64,000 nt of DNA from Hydrolagus affinis (Eukaryota). Below, piece by piece: positions 17,688-57,897 of the stretch; positions within the stretch are counted from its first letter, which is position 1, and each line of letters opens with the position of its first letter. The notes under the pieces are model-generated. The model had not been told where the DNA came from and ran no database searches. It saw nothing but the letters and a program-made list of their open reading frames with translations. The stretch is from the NCBI GenBank assembly GCA_012026655.1, contig JAAILG010000125.1, positions 62,001 through 126,000 on the forward strand, read 5' to 3'. The position numbers and the translations under genes are program-made.

Positions 17688-18518
17688 AATCACCAGGAAT
17701 GATCATGATTAATAAAGTAATGAGGATATTTTCAGTAGGAACGTAAGATCTCTCAAGTGACACCTTGAATTTGGTAATAGCATTAAAATAACATATGAAG
17801 CACCCTTAAATTAGTCTGGCATATCTTCCATCAGTCATACTGTAATTCAGCTTCTTAAGATAATATTAAACTGATTTTCTCTTGCATTGCAAACACAATT
17901 TATCCCTATAGTTATTTGGGACAGAAAACAAAGTGACTTTTCAATAGTGTCAAGTGAGCAAGAACAAATGATTTTCAATTAGTTTGGGTGAAAGATTAAA
18001 GTTGCTTTTTACTTACATCAGGTAATGGAATAAAATTATGTTTAAGTTATCCTAAGAGATAAATTAATGATCTTTCAGCAACATCAGGGGATGGAATATA
18101 GTGATTTTAAGCTACCCTGCATGATTGATTAAAATGATCGCTCTTTTCAATCTGATGAATGAATAAGATGATCTCCCTGACACCGGATAATAAAATAAAA
18201 AACACTTTTAGTAAGTCAAATAACTAATCTATCCCAATATAAATTTTAGTCAGCACCTTGTACGTCAGTCTTAAATTACATTAAGGAGGTTTACTAACAA
18301 GTTTTGGAAACACAGCAAATTGATCAAAAAAACTTTTGATTTTTTCTCACTGGTTAATGTTTAGTCAACTGACAATTTGCTGCTGCATTTCAATTGATGT
18401 CTTATTATAGATATGGCTAAATGAAACTATGCAAATTGTCTTGTTTTTTTTAAAAAATCAAGAATATTATTTTTATATGATTAATATTATTATTGCAAGG
18501 ATTATTATTATTTGAACA

Positions 18519-18605
18519 TAATAATCCTTGCATTTGATATAGTGCTTTTCATGTCTTCTAGATGTCTCAAAGCGCTTCACAAAATATACTGTAAAGTGAA
18601 TTGAA
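18519..18605 (-). mobile_element. SINE 3' tail, well preserved
   Basis: taataatccttgcatttgatatagtgcttttcatgtcttctagatgtctcaaagcgcttcacaaaatatactgtaaagtgaattga. Confidence 0.88.
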
Positions 18606-18997: not shown

Positions 18998-19891
18998 CAG
19001 GTACTCCGCCCCAACCGCGGCCTCGTCAATAGTGAAACTCACGCATCCACGGTTTGCTAAATGCAACAACCCTTGCAAATCACAGCTTATAACCGTTGCT
19101 TATCCATGGGTTTTAACACCAATACTAGCGTTTAGCGCTAGGACCCAGTTGCATCAACCAACCTCGATGTCGCTTCGCGCTAGCGTATAGTACTAGGACC
19201 CAGTTGCGATGTTGCGATCAACCAGCGACAACGCTTTTCTCTTGGGATTAAGGTAAATACAGTAACATGAATTTATTGCTTCTCTGCATTCTCTCTCTCT
19301 GTGTGTAAGTGGGCTATAGAGATCTCTCTTTCTCTCACCTTCTCTCTATTTCATCTTCTCTTCCCCCCACCCACCACTACCCCTCCCCATCCCCTCTTCT
19401 CTCTCTCACCTTCTCTTTATTTCATCTTCTCTTCCCCCCACCCCCACTCCCCCACTCTCTCTCTGTGTCTGTGTGTAGATCAGTCAGGCAGTCAGACAGC
19501 CCCCCAGCCTTCCGTGTCACCCACCACACCTTCTCCATTAATCTCTCTCTCTCTCTGTGTGTAGATCAGTCAGACAGTCCACCAGCCCTTCATACCACCC
19601 ACCCACCCCTCCCCCCACCCTCCGTCTCTCCCTCTTGCTCTCTCTCTGTATAGATCAGTCAGGCAGTCAGACAGATTGCTGCAGATCCTGGCAGCCAATG
19701 CGCCCAAATTTACTCCCCCTATCTCCATGTATATTATAACTGTATGTGTTTTTTGGGGGGTTGTTCTTACAACGCGAACTTACTTCCCCTATCCCCATGT
19801 TTCCCATAGGGTCCTGCATTTTCCAACCGCAATTTTACCAGCCACGGAGGTTTACAGGAACATATCCCCCACGGTTGGGGAGGGATACCTG
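18998..19891. mobile_element. Non-autonomous Tc1/mariner-superfamily (Tigger/pogo-like) element, 894 bp
   Basis: TIRs CAGGTACTCCGCCCCAACCGCGG / CAGGTATCCCTCCCCAACCGTGG (revcomp). The right flank is TA and the left flank is CA, possibly a mutated TA TSD. Subterminal regions are CpG-rich and there is no transposase ORF. Confidence 0.8.
19280..19680 (+). repeat. CT-rich low-complexity / degenerate tandem repeat inside the Tigger-like element
   Basis: Three units ending ctctct(g)tgt..tagatcagtcag(gcagtcag)acag at about 19476, 19561 and 19651, separated by C/T-rich tracts. Confidence 0.8.
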
Positions 19892-45119: not shown

Positions 45120-45290
45120 GTAATATTAATCCTTCTATTTGATATAGCACTTTTCATGTCTTCTAGACATCTCAAAGTGCTTCACAGAATATACTGCAAA
45201 GTGAATTGACTGTATATTTGTGGGCGAAACATGACAGCCAATTGCGCACAGCAGTGTCCCACAAACAGTCATGGATTCGAGTGACCACAA
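45120..45290 (-). mobile_element. 5'-truncated SINE, well preserved
   Basis: atccttctatttgatatagcacttttcatgtcttctagacatctcaaagtgcttcacagaatatactgcaaagtgaattgactg...cagccaattgcgcacagcagtgtcccacaaacagtcatgg. Confidence 0.9.
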
Positions 45291-48175
45291 TGACCTCAGC
45301 ATCTGCAGGCTCACATCGAGCTAGTGTTCCCGCTCTGAATCATCACCAAATATCTAATCACGCAGCTGCTTATGTACGATTTTGAGGGAGGACGGGGTCA
45401 AGCTCAACTCGTAATCTTTCTTGAGCCGAAGAGCCTGCCCACAAACACTTTTCAGGCTCGCAAACAAAGAATAGGCACGTGGACAAAATCCTGCATAGTG
45501 CTTGTAGAACATAGTCCAGGATCACTCACCACTCTCAGGCAGGGAGGAAAGGGAGATAAGGGAAGTATGAGCAGGTGCGAGATATCACTGGGAAAAATCC
45601 ATGCAGTAGGATTCTAACCCATCAGACAATTGTCAGAACTCGCCAGGGAAAAGATCTTTGATCCATTATTTGGTCATTCAAAAAAAAACTCTGATCAGTT
45701 GGGTAACCAGTAGTAGAAGAGTGCTTTATCTTTCGGAATACTGCCGTCCTTTATATACTGAAAAAGCTTTTCACTTTAATACTACAATAACATCAAAACG
45801 GTTCAGTATCTGATATTTGAATTGCCTGGCTGGCACGCAACAAAGCTGCCACAGCTTTTTACTTCAAGCATTTATAATGCTTATGAGGCACATTCACTTA
45901 TTTTTGATCTTTTGATTGTGGCTTCTGTCTTCGGCATCGGAAGGCAAAGCAACGGGGGAAAAAAATCAATTTGTACATATTTTATGTGTATTAATGCGCT
46001 ATTGATTATCTGAAGCTTTTTTAATGCACTCATTACGCAGACGGATTAAAGGAATACTTAACCTGCCATTGTATTACAGTATATAAATGTAAGTGGTGCA
46101 ATAAAGCAGACACATGTGAAACTTGAGCAGAATTATACTTGCTTAGTTACTTCTAACCTTTTCATATTTGAGAAAAGTACTGTAAGGAAAGAAAATTGGC
46201 ATGGAATTCATTGTCAGTCTTTAGGTATAAATAGAAATATTTTAAAACAATGAGCCAAAAATGTGGGGCAAAAAAACACCCTAGTGCCTGTTCATTTAAG
46301 ACTATCACATCACATTACATCATTCCCACCTTTGTGCACTGCTTTTTATTGTAAAGGCATATCTAAAGGTTTTCCAGATCAAGGAATCTGGACAGTACCT
46401 GGGAGAAAATCCAAATGCAATAATTGCATTTTTTTTTAAAACAATCTACAAATATACTGTAATGACATTCCATTCACAGGCACTGAATTTAAAAGTTACA
46501 GCACCCATTTACCATTTACCCAGTTCTGCAGTGCTCTATGAAGGATCTCTTATGTCAGACTAGAACCAGCATTGAGTGCAGCACTGCTAACCCACCATGT
46601 TATCATGATCTCACAGTTTTCCTGAGTTTTTCATCTTTGGAAATCCCAAGAATTAATATTCCAATTTAAAAACAAAATCTTTCCAATTCTTTGCAGCTTG
46701 ATTTATGCATTACAGTACTGGGGTTTCCTTAAATGTCAAAGCGCATACACTACAGAGATATTTCCCTGACCATGCTGGTAATCGAAATAGTTTTATCCAA
46801 TATACAGCACTTTGACTGATCCCTGAGTGACTGACTATTCACTTGTTACATATTTTCAAAACCTTTCGATGAAAGATGGTTCTAACTGTATGTTGCCACC
46901 AGTTAAATCAGTTTAACCGATTCATGGGGTAGAGCAGAACTAAGGCAGAATCAACACATTTGATTGAAAAAAAGGAAATAAAAAGATTTAGTGAAACATA
47001 GCTCTCTAACTCTGTATAATAAAATACAAACGTGTGATGCCTTTGGTCCATGATTATGGCGTGATTTTCTAACCTTGCAGGAATTCATTAAAATTCCTTT
47101 CAGATGTTTAGTTCGGTAGGTATTTAGTCTAGTTTTATCAAATCGCGGCTGTTTATAATTACACAGAAACAACCTGCTATTGACAGCTTTGCTTTCCCAT
47201 AATATCTATGCATATGTTTTCTGGTCTATTGCTGCAATTTCCAAGGAGACTTCATCAGGGTCTTTTCAAATTTCAATCCATTTTCTGTTCTCTTACACCA
47301 TCATTCATTCCAGTTGATCGCCCATTTTATAATGCTAATTGTGGGTGTATGGTTTTAAGTTTCTCTACTGTCAGGTGGTCAGTGGATCTATGGGATATTT
47401 TTAATCGAATGTGACAGCTGATGGAACTGATCTCATTGAAAGGACATGTGATATGGGCAATGAATGAATGTAGTGACCCTCAATGAACATATTAATGGAC
47501 ACCATTATTCAAACTCCCGAGTGTCATTATATAAAAAGGACAAAACTAAATTCTGAATCGGTTTTAAGTCATTCTGTTTGCAATCACTTTAGCACAAATA
47601 TCACAAGCAGGAAAACAACGAGTGGGCACTGCCTTACATTTAAGAAAAGGAAAGTCCAACAAAGGTTGACTCAGCTTTGCACATATGTTGCAAACATTGC
47701 GTGTGAAAGTTGGTTACTGTACAATAAAAATATTTGATCATCCATCTGCCTATCTCGCGGTTTAGGAAATAAAACTGGTTATGTCTAAGAACAGATAATT
47801 ATTTGGAATAGTATATCTTTAACCAATATTTTAGGACAGAAGCATGCATCCAATATCCCATGGGTATTGTTAGTTTCACTATCTGAGCAATGATATTTAA
47901 TATTTAGCAATGATGAAAACAAAAGTATGAACACAAACATACAAACATTACAGGCAACCAACCTGCCTCAAGCAGATTATAACAGCTTTATAACAAATGG
48001 CAAATGATGTAAGCACAGGCCACAAGAGCCATGGAGACTGTTGAACCAGGGGTTCATCAACATGGTAAAATCAAAGTTATTGATATGCATCAAAGTAGTT
48101 TTGTTTCAGAAACAAAACCAGAAGTCGCTGGGAACACTCAACAAATCAGAGAGCATCTATGGAGAAAGGAAAAGT

Positions 48176-48212
48176 GAGTCAATGTTTCAGGTCCACGACC
48201 ATTCATCAGAAC
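48176..48212 (-). ncRNA. Minimal hammerhead-ribozyme-like core (minus arm)
   Basis: Minus strand reads gtt-CTGATGA-A-tGGTC-gtg-GACCt-GAAAC-ATT-gac. It has the core boxes, stem II and a 3-bp stem I (GUU/GAC). Confidence 0.5.
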
Positions 48213-48215
48213 ATG

Positions 48216-48249
48216 CTGATGAAAGGTCGTGGACCCGAAACATTGACTC
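48216..48249 (+). ncRNA. Minimal hammerhead-ribozyme-like core (plus arm), probably decayed
   Basis: CTGATGA-A-aGGTC-gtg-GACCc-GAAAC-ATT contains the CUGANGA and GAAA core boxes flanking a 4-bp stem II. Stem I pairing is absent. Confidence 0.5.
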
Positions 48250-48619
48250 ACTTTTCCTTTCTCCATAGATGCTGTCTGACCTGTTGAATGTTCACAGTGA
48301 TTTCTGTTTTTCTTTCAGATTTTCAGCATCTGCAGTATTTTGCTTTTGGGGTTTTGTTTCTGGTTTCAGTTGCTAATATTCACAGAACAAATTGAATATT
48401 GCACTGGCTTTGATGTCCTAGCTGTTCAATTATTGTAGTAGCTCTTAAGAATAATTCATATGTTTAACTCAACAAATAAAGGTAATACAGTAGTGCCTAT
48501 TTATCACATGCTGGTTAATTAATAATTATATTTTTGACGGGTGTACCAATCTAACCCCACTTCTGACCTACTATTGAGTTATTATGCCAGTAAACTCATG
48601 AAATTGTTTCCTTCAAATA

Positions 48620-48735
48620 GTAATAAATAATAATTCCTACATTTGATATGGGAAACATCAAATGCAGGGGAAACATCTCAAAACACTTGACTTGAAGAAT
48701 CTGATTTTACTGAAAAATATAGTGACTGTATATTT
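48620..48735 (-). mobile_element. Decayed SINE tail
   Basis: aataataattcctacatttgatatg...catctcaaaacactt...atagtgactgta. Confidence 0.6.
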
Positions 48736-51700
48736 TTTAAGCAAATTTCACCCACACCAATTAAGGTATAATATATACAGAAATTCAGAACGAACAAAGT
48801 TTAGCAAAACAGTTTTTAAAAAATTTAAACCGTTTGTAATACAGATCAATATATTATTATGGCTGAGAAAAAAAAATTAACACAATAATTAAACATGTAG
48901 CCTCGGAGTTTAAAGAATTTCTGTGAGTTGTTCCAGTTATGTCTTTGTTAACAAATATGCTGTGCCTGGTATGTGCTTTCCAACTCAGTTTCTGAGAGTG
49001 CATATCAGGATATGTCGTGAAGGCTATCCCTTAATTCATCTTGTCTCAGTTGCCCATTTTTCTGCAGCCAATTAATTTGAGCTGACGCAAAGGCCAATTC
49101 AGTTTAAAGTACACTGTGTAAATGATACCAAGTCCACATAGGTCTGACAGAGTTTCACTTTGTATTCTGTCTGGGTAAGTGGGTTATCCAAAATGAAAGT
49201 AATTTATCTAGCTCACAGATCTCTTATGCTGCTTTTGATACCTGAACACACATAAAGCCCAAGTTGCAAAGTTAACTATTTAGTTTGAAGCTTGCTCATC
49301 ACAAGCCAATGGTTTGTGGCAGACTCTCCTCTTGAGGGGAGAGCAAATCTGTTTATAATACATGTCACTTGGACTTCTAGTAGCCAACAGCAAGTGACCA
49401 TTTCCACTGGCTTCGCTGTGTCTTGTTGTGAACCAATGTCTCATTGTGAAGTGTTCACATTGACATATTGTACCACATGTGTATATTATATATACTGTAT
49501 TAGTGTTCTACCGCTTGTATGTGAAAGATCAATGAGTTGGTAGCACTGTGGCCGATGAGTTAAGCTGTTCTCTCTCTCGCAAATGAATTCATTTTAGCAA
49601 CATGTTATCCATCCAAATATTCTGGTAATTTTGAAGAGCATTAGTCATCTGGGGTTAAAATGGTTTGCAGAGTGCACATTATTTAGTAACAATTCCCATG
49701 TGTGTTGCATTAAGGCTACAATGAGGTGCATGTGTTAAGGATGGATTTTAACACATCAGGAACCTTTTAGTCACCAAACAAGGTAAGATAAATTCTGGTG
49801 TAGATTTGTGCATACTATTAATTATACTGGTTAGATTATTAGCAGAAATTCAAACTAATTTCTAAATTGGTGTTCGCTCGCTAATTGTGCTGCAGACAAT
49901 CTTGGATAAAGGAGGAACCAAGACTGAATGAAAAGGGAATGAGAGCTTTTACAACAGTTCTCAGCCCTTCCTTATCATTGTGCCCAATGCAACATTTGGG
50001 TTTTGTTTTGCCCCAGACTGTGGAATTTCCAACAATGCCCATAGAATAAAGAGCCCTACATACCTCATAGCACCCAAACAAAATCACTGTAACCCCTTCT
50101 CTCTTCAATTTCTCTCTTATAACTGAGATTCTTTTCCTGAATGAGGCTATTTGCATTTTGCTAGAGACCAATATGCCTTTTGTCTTCCTTTTTCGACCTT
50201 TAGTACTTTTTTCTTTAAATTATTTCACATTCACAAATACCTTGACATTCTGAAGTTTTGTTCACCTAGCTGCTCTTAGCTGAAATAGATTCAATTTGAA
50301 TATAGAGCAGATTACTGTTTTCAAGCAAGTTCTCTGAAGATTTTTTTTAAAAAAAGAAATGCATTGGACAGTGAAACAAAACACATTCTCTTAACAATTA
50401 CTTCTATTTTACCATTTTTTCATTTATAAACTTTTAATTTTGTGTGCCGAACAGGCAAGGTTAAAAGTGCGTTTGTATCAATACAATATACAATTGATAT
50501 TTGCCCTCAGCATTTTCCAGCAGTGTGAATTTATGTCACACAAAATATAATATGGGTTAATGTGGTACCACAATAAACTCACTCTGGCATAGATCTGATT
50601 TGATCCAAGATGGCAGTCGACTTTCTTTCCCAATCTCTTTTCAATGCATGCACAACTTACATTTATACAGCAACTTCCCTGTGAAAAAAACTTATGGGAA
50701 GGAATCACAACATAAGAAATGAAATGATTGTGGTTAAATAGGCCAATGCAGCACCAAAGAGCACGAATCTTTGCCTGAGGTTTGGGCATGGGGCCGATAT
50801 GAGACCCAAACTTTGGGAGTATATTTTCTCTGCTGTCACTGAAAGCTCTATCAATCTAATAATTACAGGCAGCATACCTGTCTGTTCCGATCAATGTGCT
50901 AGCTTTCCAAGGCTTTAAAACAAACTTGCATTATGGAGTACAGCATTTGCTATTAAGGACTGTATTGCTTTTCAAAGAGTTGGAAACAGTTTTGTGGCTT
51001 AGTAGCAGGAAAGCAATGAAAGACCACAGAGCCACACTGCCCAAACCACCAAAACTTCAAACTGCAGAAAGCCCAAGATATGTCTAACAGCACTGAACAC
51101 TAAAGTGGGTAATAGAGACAAATAGACGCATGATTTTTTTTTTAGTGGGGGGAAATACTTTATAAGGGAAGAAAAAGAGAAACTCAATTGGTTGTGATCC
51201 CATTAATCGTTCAAGAATTTTGATTAAGTACTCTGAAGCAAGGAAAAAAAGATGCCAGGCAGTCTTAAATAATTTAAGATCATAAGAGTGGTAGGACATG
51301 ATAAATAATTAATAAGTGAGAATCCGAAAAGTCTCTGCTGTGTCTCAGCTTTGAAAATACAGGAAATATATTGGTCACAATGGTTAATATCTACATATCT
51401 CCAACGAAACAACATTAGATCAATATTTTTTTCAATCCCTCATGAAGAAGTAACCACAACTAAGAAACGTCATTACCCATTACCATTTATCAAAGCTTTA
51501 ATAAGAATGGCATGGCTTGATCTTCAAGAGTAAGCTGGTGGTGAACAATAGGTTTGTCCTTTGAGTCCATGTATTATCTTTGACCTAATAGCAGGAAGTA
51601 ATTACATAGCTCAAAGCAAAAAATCACCCGTGGTGTTTTGTTGATGCTTTGTATTGATTAATGCACTCAGTTTTTTGGCTGGAGGAAAAAAAATCTGAGG

Positions 51701-53074: not shown

Positions 53075-53210
53075 CTGTTCTGACAAAGGGTCATAGAACG
53101 GAAATTTTAACTCATTTTCCCCTCTCCATAAATGCTGCCTGACCTGCTGCATGTTCCCAGCGATTTCTGTGTTTATACTAGATTTGCAGCATCTGTAATA
53201 CTTTGCCTTT
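53075..53210 (+). mobile_element. Second, single-arm, more decayed Penelope-type terminus
   Basis: gttctgacaaagggtcatagaacggaaattttaactcattttcccctctccataaatgctgcctgacctgctgcatgttcccagcgatttctgt...gatttgcagcatctgtaatactttgcc, which aligns to 48216-48347. Confidence 0.75.
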
Positions 53211-56200
53211 TTTTTCCAACTAAGAAAACTTCTGACTTCAACTTTATATAGTAATAAAAAAAATCAATTAACCAGTTAGTGCGTTCATTTAAAACAAGTT
53301 GTGCAACTTTACAGTGAAGCAAAAATCAGGAGCACAATTTGTTTCTCATCAAGATTCTAAAAAAAATCTGTGTAATGTTAGTGGTGTTTTGTGTATGTTT
53401 TCCTTTATCCTTCCTTGAGCTGTTAGCAAGACCCTTTTGGCTGTTCATTAAGGATCAGCTGGTAGCACCTTGAACTGAATGTCCAGTGCATCTCCAGTTG
53501 AGTCTTGTGAATCCAGGCCATGTGTTGTAATGTTGCACATATCACCTAATTTCAATGACTCCTTCACAGTACACAGATCAAAAAGGAAAATCTGTCTAGT
53601 GAAGAACAAATGGTTTGCCAGCTGCACTATTTGAATGGAGAAATAAAACTACCAGGGAGTTTGTGCACTGAAGTGCGACACATTTTATACTGAACATTAT
53701 ATGCTCTAAAGATTGCTAACACAGTCACACTCCTTTATTCTGCTGGCATCAGAAAGTTGAATTAACAACCCAAACGTTTCAGAGCAATTTTACTGTGGCG
53801 GCGATATAAACTCAAAGTAACAATTATTCAAGAAGTATTCAGTTCTTTTATTAGAAGCTTGCGCCCTCAAATTCCCAGTGCTAGCCACAAAGATCCATTT
53901 AAAATTCTTCTCACACAAACACAAAACATGACAGCTGCACTTCTAACAAACTATTTCTTACAGCTCTCAATAACTCTGCGAAAATTAGTTCTGGGCTTTA
54001 CCCTGCACCCACAGATAATTAAGGAATCTAATCCCGTTAATAGTGATATGCACTGCTGTTCTGTTTCAACTTGTTCCAGGTACCATCAAGAATAATCATG
54101 ATCTACTCCATCAACACTGCAGCGCTGAGGGGGAATTGCATGGGAGGATAACCCAGAAAGCAAACCCCCAACAGTAATAATTGTGCACTTGTAAAAAAAA
54201 CACACGATTGGGAAAAATAGTAATTTGCTTCAAGACATACCCTGCAGAGCCACTTGTTAGATTACAGTGAGGAGGAATTGTTTCGAAAACTTTCACTTTC
54301 TCTGTTGTGTTCCTTTAATGGCACTGTCATTCTTGTGAGTCGGTGAGACATTCTCTGTTCCTGTTTCTTTGTTATGCAATTGATGTGCTCTAGTGATAGG
54401 AACAAATAGGGAAAGCGAGATTACAATATTAGTTACTGTAAACATTTCCATTTGAAATAAATGCACTTGTTTAATTATCTTTTCCCTGTACTTTGACATA
54501 TTAATCTGTGGCTCCCATCCATAAATTCGACCGTCTCCATCTTTGTTTTCTTTTAAATATATAACTACATTATCAGTCTGGACAAGAGACTAATTTAGCA
54601 CAGAATTGACTGGTTTAGTGTACAGAACACAGTCTGTAATTCCAAACTTTGTTTTGACAAATCTTTAACTTCCCTTCATTTCGCCAACCACAGTACAGAG
54701 TTCTTATTTTCTTTATGTGCGGAAATGTCTTGGTTAAGCTACTAGCCAGGATTTAAGCCTGACTCATTCACAGAGGCAGAGTTTCAGGCAGCATATTCAG
54801 TTGGGGCATTTATGCATGGGCGGTCACTTGTCAGTAAGTTGTTTCTCCGAGTAAAACTAAATTCACAAAAAGTGCAAGAGCTGCGTAATTAAAATTTTGT
54901 TTGCACTGCAAATTTAATCAGTTTCACAAAGAGCAGCCGATTTCTGCAGTTCACTCCGTCACAGGGAAAGAAAAGGGAAAAATCTCAAACTGAATATCAA
55001 TGCTTGAATCCATGAAGAACAATCTCAAGAGGCAAGTTACATGTATGAAAAATAAATCGCACACAACTTGTAAGGTTTAAGCTACCTTTTCACTCGCAAG
55101 TAAGGTAGGTTTTTCACCTCCAACCTACTGCCTCGCACAGAATTTTGACTGCAGTAGCGTTGGGCTGTTTCCATATTGGTTTGATCCCACAACCTGACCG
55201 AAAATAGAACAACACTTATTCCCGCTGAATCCATCTCCTGAACATGAGTGGGGTTTGCAACTTAGTATGAAGTAAAGCTTTTAACCTGATTAGGATGTTA
55301 AATGTACTGTTTCAGACATGAATTGTTCACAGAAACTGCTCACTTGTTGTCAAAACAGCTCTTCGTGGATGCAGTCTAAAACAATGACAAGATAAAAGCT
55401 GAAGCAAATGAATATGCCTTTCAAGTACTGAATTGCAATGTCATTCAGATACTGCTCCATCCTCTTGCAGAGTCTAGAACAAACACGTATATTAAAGACT
55501 ACCATAGCAATGACCTAACCGCTGATGATTTGCAACCTAAATACACAGCACATTGTTTTCAGTGAAGGCACTATAAACAGAAGTCTTTAAAACAAGAAAT
55601 AATTAAACTATGTTTAATACAACTCAATATTCCACAATGGTGCCAGCTCTCTGAATGCTTATCTAATATTTAAAAGTACTTTTCTACTTCTACTTGTTTT
55701 GTCTATTCTTTTTCCAGATTTTCTGTTCAAGTGAGTAGTTTTATCTAAAAGGTCAATTCATTCAGCATAGTACCAAATAGAATTGAATATAATTATCCCA
55801 ATCTTTACTGTGTAGAATTCATGCTTGGATTCATTCAAAAAATAGGCTGAGGTATAATTAACTCAGAGCTCAACCAAATCTATTGAGTCTGCTTCAGGTA
55901 TCATACAGTTCTACTTACAATGGGACATTTTTATTTTAGAACATTGTACATATTAACCTAAGTCAGCATCCAATTACTCAGAATAAGTGAATTCTCTGTT
56001 TCAGGAATGCAATCGGAAAATGTTGTCATGCAATTTGAAGCAAAAGGCCTTTTTCATTAAGTTAACCCTCATGAAAGAGAAAACCTGTAGCTGATTTTAA
56101 ATACATTACCTTTATGCACAGGTGATGGCAATTCTATTACGGACACATTTCTTTCAGTAAACACACTGCAAGATTTAAATACAAGGGAAGGGATATGAAT

Positions 56201-56538: not shown

Positions 56539-57276
56539 CAGTAGAAGCCCGTTTATCCATGACTCGATGAACCGGCACTTCCATATAACCAGCATGCCCA
56601 AAAAAAGTTCCCATTCAATAAACTGGAATTTATCCGGAACAATAGTGGTGGAGCATTTGTAAATGCATAAATAATAACATAATAGCAGAATATTGTATTG
56701 GTACTTATTGTTAAAACTACTCTCATGTGCTTCTCACATTTGCTGGTAGATGCTGCGCTTGAAGCCATGATGCTGCGGTTGAGATTTATAGTCCAGCGAT
56801 TCTTTTTAAAATGGAGGACGCTAAGCGGGTGAAAAAAACAGAGCACGACTTTAAAGCCATACTAGCGGCAAGCCAATAATGCTAGCTGATAACCCACATT
56901 GTCATGCAGGTGCAGTATTTTGGTTTGCCGTTAGTAGTCTAGACCTATCGGCTTGCCACTAGTAAAGTCGCGCGACTTTAAAATCGCGCTGCTGTTTTTT
57001 TCACCCGTTTGGCGTCCTCCATTTAAAAAAGAATCGCTGGACTGTAAACCTCAATCAGTAAAGGTGAGAAGCGCAAGATAGTTTTAACAATAAAGTACCA
57101 ATACAATATTCTGTTATTATCTGTTATTATTTAGTCTGGTGTGTATGGCGTGTGTTAAAAGAACTTTAATTTTTTTGTAGTGGGTTTTCGGCCGCAGGCC
57201 GCCCGAATATCCGGCAGGCGCTTTAACTGGCATTGGCCAGGTCCCACGGGTGCCGGATAAAAATGGGCTTTTACTG
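56539..57276. mobile_element. Non-autonomous Tigger/pogo-like DNA transposon, 738 bp, with a long internal palindrome
   Basis: TA TSD on both sides (56537-56538 and 57277-57278). TIRs CAGTAGAAGCCCGTTTATCC / CAGTAAAAGCCCATTTTTATCC (revcomp). Internal inverted arms at about 56668-56874 and 56950-57133. Confidence 0.88.
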
Positions 57277-57489: not shown

Positions 57490-57897
57490 ATGATGATAAT
57501 AATAATAATCTTGGATTTGATATAGCGCCTTATCACATCGGAAGGATGTCTCAAAATGCTTCACGCGTATGACTGTGAAATGAATTAACTGTGTACTAAT
57601 AGGCAAACATGGCAGCACAATTGTGCACAGCAATCAATATTCCACAAACAATTATGACTGACCGAATGAATGACAATTTTTTAGTATTGGGGATTGTTGT
57701 CAAGTCACCAGAAGAAACTCCCTTCTCTCTTTGAATAGTGCCATGGGATCTTTAACATCCACCTGAACATGCAGACAGGACCTCAGGTCTAGGTCTCATA
57801 TGAACAACGGCACCCCCGTTGTGTCCGCTTGCACAAAATGAGTTCAAGTCCAGAAGTGGGATCAGATGAGAGTATTACCACTGAGCCAAGCTGACAC
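57490..57897 (-). mobile_element. Deu-domain SINE, near full length
   Basis: Tail ataatcttggatttgatatagcgcc, core tttgaatagtgccatgggatctttaacatccacctgaacatgcagacaggacctc, and head end accactgagccaagctgacac. Confidence 0.85.

Follow-up and report, generated by a model that had tools for sequence, protein, structure and literature searches.

Endonuclease-bearing (EN+) Penelope-like elements (PLEs) leave insertions of a peculiar shape. As far as the available text of PMC8557442, PMC3846280, PMC8969392 and PMC2377424 describes them, these insertions contain an inverted 5'-truncated copy, have a tail of 30-40 bp at one end and are flanked by duplications of 8-10 bp. Minimal hammerhead ribozymes have been found in the pseudo-LTRs (pLTRs) of PLEs (PMC4209133, PMC6765202, PMC6155905, parts available to us), and for S. 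mansoni the accessible part of PMC4209133 reports dual hammerhead motifs 100-700 bp apart on opposite strands. In the in vitro system made with the anole Poseidon element PAc, both strands were cut and extended, and two reverse transcriptase (RT) start sites bounded the tail; insertion did not need hammerhead cleavage, there were no reads ending at the cut site, and the uncleaved RNA was the main substrate (PMC11167929, as given in its available sections). Related to PLE pLTRs are the animal non-LTR retrozymes, which are non-coding and carry hammerheads and have been described as derivatives of PLEs (available portions of bioRxiv 10.64898/2026.07.22.740005; see also PMC7229834).

The locus described here lies in a window of 64,000 nucleotides from Hydrolagus affinis (contig JAAILG010000125.1, positions 62,001 to 126,000). 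Its central feature is a mirror-image element whose parts are listed in the table; family positions are numbered from the hammerhead nucleotide C3. The palindrome is genuine, a footprint of a type already known for PLEs, and it is near certain that the element is a PLE pLTR pair. We think it likely that it represents a single decayed insertion of two head-to-head 5'-truncated pLTRs of an EN+ PLE, made in what was likely one event, with both nicked strands of the target priming reverse transcription. As far as their available parts go, Pen2a_Av (PMC3846280), the scheme in Fig. 2 of PMC8557442 and the D. virilis Penelope (PMC2377424) are alike in having a head-to-head inverted copy at the 5' end, a tail at one end only, a target-site duplication (TSD) of about 10 bp, a hammerhead in the pLTR and a parent with RT and, at its C terminus, a GIY-YIG domain. 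Unlike the insertions described in these available parts, here both copies consist of the pLTR alone, so that a palindrome of 243 bp makes up the entire insertion; stubs of this kind are frequent in the family, accounting for 42 of the 91 loci sampled. The anatomy of the insertion has thus already been described, and what the stubs add is a useful clue, which we infer, to priming on two strands.

Table. Features of the palindromic element, in window coordinates
Feature	Positions	Strand	Remarks
Whole element	48108-48350		Two head-to-head 5'-truncated pLTRs, 243 bp, mirror-image
TSD, left copy (10 bp)	48098..48107	none	Letter-for-letter identical to 48351-48360
Inverted tail-less pLTR arm	48108..48212	-	Family positions -3 to about +101
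Degenerate hammerhead core, left arm	48181..48209	-	C3 is 48209; cleavage predicted between 48181 and 48180
Junction filler (3 nt)	48213..48215	none	Together with 48210-48212 makes the 6-nt loop
Direct pLTR arm with tail	48216..48350	+	Family positions 0 to +131, then 3 G
Degenerate hammerhead core, right arm	48216..48244	+	C3 is 48216; cleavage predicted between 48244 and 48245
"Tail", extension of about 30 nt, right arm only	48320..48347	+	Two peaks of arm 3' ends
TSD, right copy (10 bp)	48351..48360	none	Exact match to the left copy

An earlier sequence-only reading had reported an inverted repeat with arms of about 97 bp around a 6-nt loop, and 86 of these 97 positions do pair. Its palindrome stood but its extent (48113..48310) did not, the element being longer and asymmetric, with a right arm that exceeds the left by about 30 nt, and it had overlooked the exact 10-bp duplication around it. 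As an inverted repeat, 48106-48209 is 88% complementary to 48216-48319 across a gap of 6 nt. The left arm has 12 differences from the family majority (88.8% identity), the right arm 11 (91.7% identity). The three nucleotides assigned to junction filler could alternatively be a remnant of the parent sequence upstream of the core, a stretch too short to decide between the two. The RNA hairpin has a folding energy of -155.3 kcal/mol (z = -18.35), which none of 200 shuffled sequences equalled. A scan of 46000-50500 with Rfam (E<=10) returned no hammerhead; all seven matches were to miRNA-precursor models, below their gathering scores, and six of them fall on the hairpin.

The same reading had seen CTGATGA-A at the centre of both arms, followed by stem II, GAAA and ACAU, in the layout of a minimal hammerhead, and both the motif and the layout are there, the latter in the family majority. 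This majority has CUGANGA, an extra nucleotide after A9, the pair G10.1-C11.1, GAAA, a palindromic C15.2-G16.2, a stem I of 4 bp, a stem II of 5 bp and U at N17, and thereby agrees, covariation apart, with the features listed for the minimal hammerhead by Cervera and De la Pena 2014 (PMC4209133, available part). According to the same part of that paper, stem II has 7-8 bp in S. mansoni, compared with the 5 bp and N17 = U found here. No compensatory pair in stem II could be recognized by eye among the 100 variant cores listed of 158, all from one genome; apart from a single sister type, which has a mismatch, those listed were point mutants. Folding of the whole majority arm gave stem II a probability of 0.95 and stem I one of 0.5-0.8, as against 0.19 and 0.05 in a 65-nt piece.

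In the window copy both cores are damaged. The positions that the sequence-only reading had left as "n" correspond to G10.1 and C11.1. Both arms have lost this pair (A.C and U.U) as well as the palindromic 15.2-16.2, and in this the window cores differ from the minimal hammerhead of PMC4209133, as its available part defines it. Relative to the family majority, the left core has G10.1 changed to U, C11.1 to U and G16.2 to A, with the 5' strand of stem I reduced to 3 nt, whereas in the right core G10.1 has become A, G16.2 has become A and the 5' strand of stem I is missing. The change of G16.2 to A, common to both cores, is CpG decay and accounts for the ACAU seen earlier. We agree with the earlier suggestion that the copy may be inactive, and predict that it likely is. 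Since the cores lie on opposite strands and only 6 nt apart, a single transcript contains one core and its antisense and cannot form the tandem dimer. The sequestration of the ribozyme in the hairpin, which had been suggested as well, is reproduced by computed folds of the full hairpin, in which stems I and II have a pair probability of 0.00 on both strands; in the right arm folded alone these probabilities are already 0.00.

The time of the insertion can be bracketed with contigs from four public runs. In the contig of run X13 (organism D) position 48098 is joined directly to 48352, with a single copy of the TSD, thus the site is empty. In the contigs of runs X2 and X7 (organisms A and B, whose flanks are 1-2% different) the left flank continues into the element; run X12 had no listed piece spanning a flank at the junctions. 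Together, the filled and the empty sites point to a single insertion that took place after the separation from a relative with flanks about 6% different.

It was worth considering that the window copy has been co-opted as a hairpin RNA signal, either as a substrate for editing or small-RNA production or as a switch built on the sequestered ribozyme. A strong hairpin is predicted on both strands, and the insertion is retained in organisms A and B, yet the emptiness of the site in organism D, the ordinary level of decay and its mostly independent course in the two arms speak against co-option. Moreover, in the 63 full cores of the sample mismatches were no rarer at catalytic positions (8.3%) than at stem and loop positions (6.5%), as expected for neutral decay, and only 6 of the 63 matched the whole descriptor. 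None of the 148 open reading frames of at least 68 amino acids in a Pfam search for host genes gave a match, a search that short exons would escape. We regard co-option as very improbable, and the locus as an ordinary dead repeat copy, probably without function, which decayed after it had inserted.

The family to which the element belongs is large. A single 30-nt word of the arm has 1141 exact matches in the genome, and a search with the whole element returned 4846 first-look candidates, 40 of which were scored. At the 6.3% non-CpG divergence of the family copies the word matches suggest, as a rough estimate, about 8000 arms. Our sample derives from the first 100 listed places of the arm word, which gave 94 loci and, after removal of three duplicates, 91; in 49 of these the arm is solitary and in 42 an inverted arm lies upstream, head to head. 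Because a palindrome with its two arms is sampled twice, palindromes can be estimated at about a third of the insertions. Duplications scoring at least 9 were found in 40 of the 91 loci (25 of the 42 palindromic and 15 of the 49 solo loci) and in none of 91 shifted controls, whereas 51 of the sampled loci had no duplication at this threshold. The duplications of the family are 9-19 bp long; the 10 bp of the copy described here agree with the about 8-15 bp by which PLE duplications are recognized.

The pLTR occurs in the window once more, again with a tail, at 53077-53212 on the plus strand; this copy is older, starts at -3, is 82% identical to the family majority, and the bases just before it resemble the stub of an inverted arm. 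Five loci (L075, L088, L105, L110 and L119) are bigger inverted insertions, some with internal inversions, whose arms take in 100-400 bp of the 3' region of the parent, so that there is a graded series from stubs to long copies. Two pairs of loci of 3-4 kb (L039/L040 and L119/L120) are 100% identical, inverted and tens of kb apart on the same contig; they are either recent inverted duplications or assembly artefacts. A sister subfamily (L179, L181, L182, L184, L186 and L197) differs in the loop region of stem II and has better preserved 5' ends.

The Penelope origin proposed by the sequence-only reading is supported by the linkage of the arm to endonuclease loci and by its position at the 3' end of two copies with RT and endonuclease. 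Eleven of the 49 solo arms run on upstream into common sequence, and the sequence shared upstream of solos encodes a GIY-YIG endonuclease (Pfam GIY-YIG: 23.0 bits on L129 and 22.2 on L123, cut-off 22.6). Of 30 loci found with an endonuclease query, 25 (one being the query's own) have the arm downstream, on the same strand and at a distance of about 0.7-1.05 kb; in one more it was at 1.5 kb, and in four none was downstream. The match of RVT_1 to L140 (E = 0.006, 16.7 bits) was under the cut-off of 29.6, but in L151 and L152 tblastn with intact relatives covered the region from RT through the endonuclease, with the arm at the 3' end. These two are decayed near-full-length copies, 76-79% alike and with many breaks. 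In six of 30 loci picked by the 5' part of the ORF a related arm stands in front of the ORF body and runs straight into it, and in L190 it is inverted; the six loci belong to the sister subfamily. A pLTR thus occurs at both ends of the ORF, as a partial tandem, the 3' copy downstream of the endonuclease and the 5' copy in the sister subfamily. In L123 and L129 a CX4CxxC motif precedes the GIY-YIG domain. A CX2-5CxxC motif within the RT-endonuclease linker defines the Neptune and Nematis clades in the available part of PMC8557442, and judged by this sequence motif the parent is an endonuclease-bearing (RT + GIY-YIG) PLE of the Neptune/Nematis type. The seven proteins most closely related to it all bear names and come from sharks and rays, with identities of 50-59%, which makes a cartilaginous fish the likely host. 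One ray protein (P0005), annotated "divergent protein kinase domain 1C isoform X2", has a 53% match to the PLE endonuclease region and is probably a gene model that absorbed PLE sequence.

The ends of the arms tell how the palindromes were built. The 3' ends form two peaks, at +95..+109 and +125..+133, the latter including the tail. Of the 42 pairs in the unbiased sample, 30 consisted of a tailed and a tail-less arm, one had two tails, one had none, and ten had an end that could not be classified. Exactly one arm was tailed, therefore, in 30 of 32 classifiable pairs, as compared with the 48% predicted if ends were chosen independently with the frequencies seen in solos (p = 4e-8). In a larger set of pairs the proportion was 65 of 76 (one duplicate included), none with two tails. 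Solo arms have both kinds of 3' end (28 short and 19 long among 49). It was the tailed arm that reached further 5' in 13 pairs and the tail-less one in 12, with five ties.

The two arms of an insertion resemble each other in their variants. In 75 distinct pairs drawn from all loci, a set enriched for palindromes and not suitable for frequencies, 58 non-CpG variants were common to both arms of one insertion, compared with 11.7 +/- 3.1 in 2000 shuffles; without five recurrent sites the numbers were 26 and 5.6. All 32 centre spacers of at least 5 nt in this set were unique, and several repeat pieces of the arm, which looks like templated filler of end-joining, a repair pathway that we infer from these pieces. 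No non-CpG fixed difference was found between tailed and tail-less arms. The unique spacers, the shared variants and the lack of an arm-specific fixed difference together imply that each palindrome was built at its own site from one source. Later gene conversion between the arms could have contributed to the shared variants; the direction of CpG decay agreed in 39 of 67 cases (p = 0.22), which neither shows nor excludes it.

These observations also speak against multiplication of the palindrome as a unit, with palindromic masters as the source of a non-autonomous MITE-like or retrozyme-like element. A few short junctions do recur, and the 40 loci with the highest scores against the whole element match on both strands without exception and are similar in their outer ends, but those loci were picked by their similarity to the palindrome. 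In the sample drawn with the arm word solos are in the majority, the arm lengths of the palindromes vary widely, and none of the 91 loci contains a head-to-tail tandem array of arms. Retrozymes, in the available text on them, are head-to-tail tandem repeats, unlike the dispersed solos and head-to-head pairs seen here, which grade into ORF-bearing copies. The duplications of 9-19 bp and the asymmetric ends do not fit spread as a unit either. DNA-transposon MITEs are unlike copies with variable duplications and asymmetric ends. Spread as a palindromic unit is already largely refuted, and we give it hardly any probability; "MITE-like", as the sequence-only reading had called the element, was not a fitting term for retro-type insertion products that were made anew at each site, with no amplification of a unit.

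A more serious competitor shares the parent and the construction at each insertion with the reading that we prefer. It assumes that a single cDNA, begun at the tail site, folds back from its 3' end and serves as its own template, breaks and deletions at the centre later varying the middle; in a variant of it, suggested for rotifer PLEs, the template on which self-priming takes place is antisense. Self-priming of this kind is put forward in the available part of PMC3846280. Fold-back explains the shared variants and the tail on one arm. Short self-complementary words occur in the core region, and stem II (+14..+22) is where many of the junctions lie. The difficulty with fold-back is that a template yields no copy longer than itself unless a deletion follows, and in 12 of 30 pairs it is the tail-less arm that extends further 5', by more than 10 nt, in L088 and L110 by about 100 nt. 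That tail-less solos are common (28 of 49) indicates in addition that the inner end serves independently as a site of priming. It is because either arm can be the longer one and tail-less solos are common that priming on two strands is favoured, and we consider fold-back unlikely. It must be noted that central deletions after the insertion could also vary the centres and blur which arm came first.

Priming on two strands, likely as we find it, is read from old copies, with a non-CpG divergence of 6.3%, and its steps would be as follows. The protein of the element would nick both strands of the target about 10 bp apart. One strand would then prime at the tail start site (about +130) and its partner at the inner site (about +100), with one pLTR RNA probably serving as template for both, and both cDNAs would extend to the 5' end of the RNA, probably a transcription start 3-6 nt upstream of the core. 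Finally, end-joining by the host would fuse the cDNAs at the centre, using microhomology or short filler. L1 elements offer a parallel in twin priming, in which both target strands prime cDNA and a 5' inversion is joined by microhomology. In L1 the inverted part derives from a different, upstream piece of the RNA, whereas here both primings would copy the same stretch of about 100 nt, with a palindrome as the product.

What determines the 5' ends of the arms is a separate question. In 33 of the 49 solos the arm starts between -7 and +1 from C3; the word at this pile-up is presumably initiator-like, and a TTAAAAG word lies 29 nt upstream. From the ends of the copies and these two words, transcription probably starts 3-6 nt upstream of the hammerhead core. 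A hand tally of the 100 matches listed of 698 showed no excess of an extra G derived from a cap. In these 100, base -4 was A in 59, T in 23, G in 10 and C in 8, and before an A at -4 base -5 was C in 30, G in 11, A in 10 and T in 8. An origin of the arm 5' end as a splice acceptor (pyrimidine tract plus CAG) was considered and rejected, as many copies retain the AG. All arms of the family, in the window at 48253-48271 (+), contain a pyrimidine tract plus AG and then an ATG 53 nt after C3; this may be the start codon of the parent, or the site may be a splice acceptor.

Ribozyme cleavage was likewise rejected as the cause of the arm 5' ends, there being no excess of ends at the predicted cut. 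Fifty-nine matches lacked the U before the cut, and of the 30 inspected by hand about 8 were true junctions, which corresponds to 1-2% of the arms. In the 91-locus sample two arms ended at the cut, compared with 38 over the 28 positions before it, a background inflated by the ungapped walk. The absence of a pile-up at the cut site is in line with the available account of PAc in PMC11167929, in which uncleaved RNA is the main substrate; the hammerheads would ride along because they are located in the first 30 nt of the pLTR RNA.

It is instructive to compare the family with PAc as described in the available sections of PMC11167929. The two start sites of PAc and its lack of ends at the cut site match the two 3' ends of the family and its lack of 5' ends at the cut. 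The inverted product is not reported for PAc in those sections, and PAc belongs to the Penelope/Poseidon clade, whereas the parent here has the CX4CxxC linker of Neptune/Nematis. It is possible, though we would stop a little short of calling it probable, that the stubs are a genome-scale record of a dimeric RT-endonuclease that, with a single RNA as template, uses its two start sites for priming on both strands, as the tail on exactly one arm and the greater length of either arm suggest, and runs off at a transcription start just 5' of the hammerhead. If so, short palindromes would arise by default, and in their thousands, from promoter-proximal pLTR RNA, with no need for ribozyme cleavage. 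The family statistics bear on a point named as open in the available part of PMC8557442, i.e. the origin of the tandem and inverted structures of PLEs and of the tail, and they predict for the in vitro system of PMC11167929 that the start sites are used as a pair, on opposite strands, and that synthesis runs off at the 5' end of the RNA. In a literature search that covered sources other than subscription journals and Repbase we found no paper that puts forward this default origin, and no account of miniature palindromes in cartilaginous fish or of twin priming by PLEs. In practice, palindromes of this type will be mistaken for MITEs or miRNA precursors.

The window contains other repeats as well. 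An unrelated fold-back element of about 465 bp with long inverted arms (56668-57133), whose 63-nt core is 92% complementary and which is 69% complementary overall (blastn), does have the look of a DNA-transposon MITE. Another repeat, short, dispersed and very abundant, present in both orientations and ending in runs of AAT, AAC or TTG (e.g. 670-734, 18518-18604, 45123-45209 and 57502-57588), is probably the 3' end of a SINE or LINE. At 19327-19677 there is a pyrimidine-rich block of low complexity, in which a unit of about 70 nt occurs three times.
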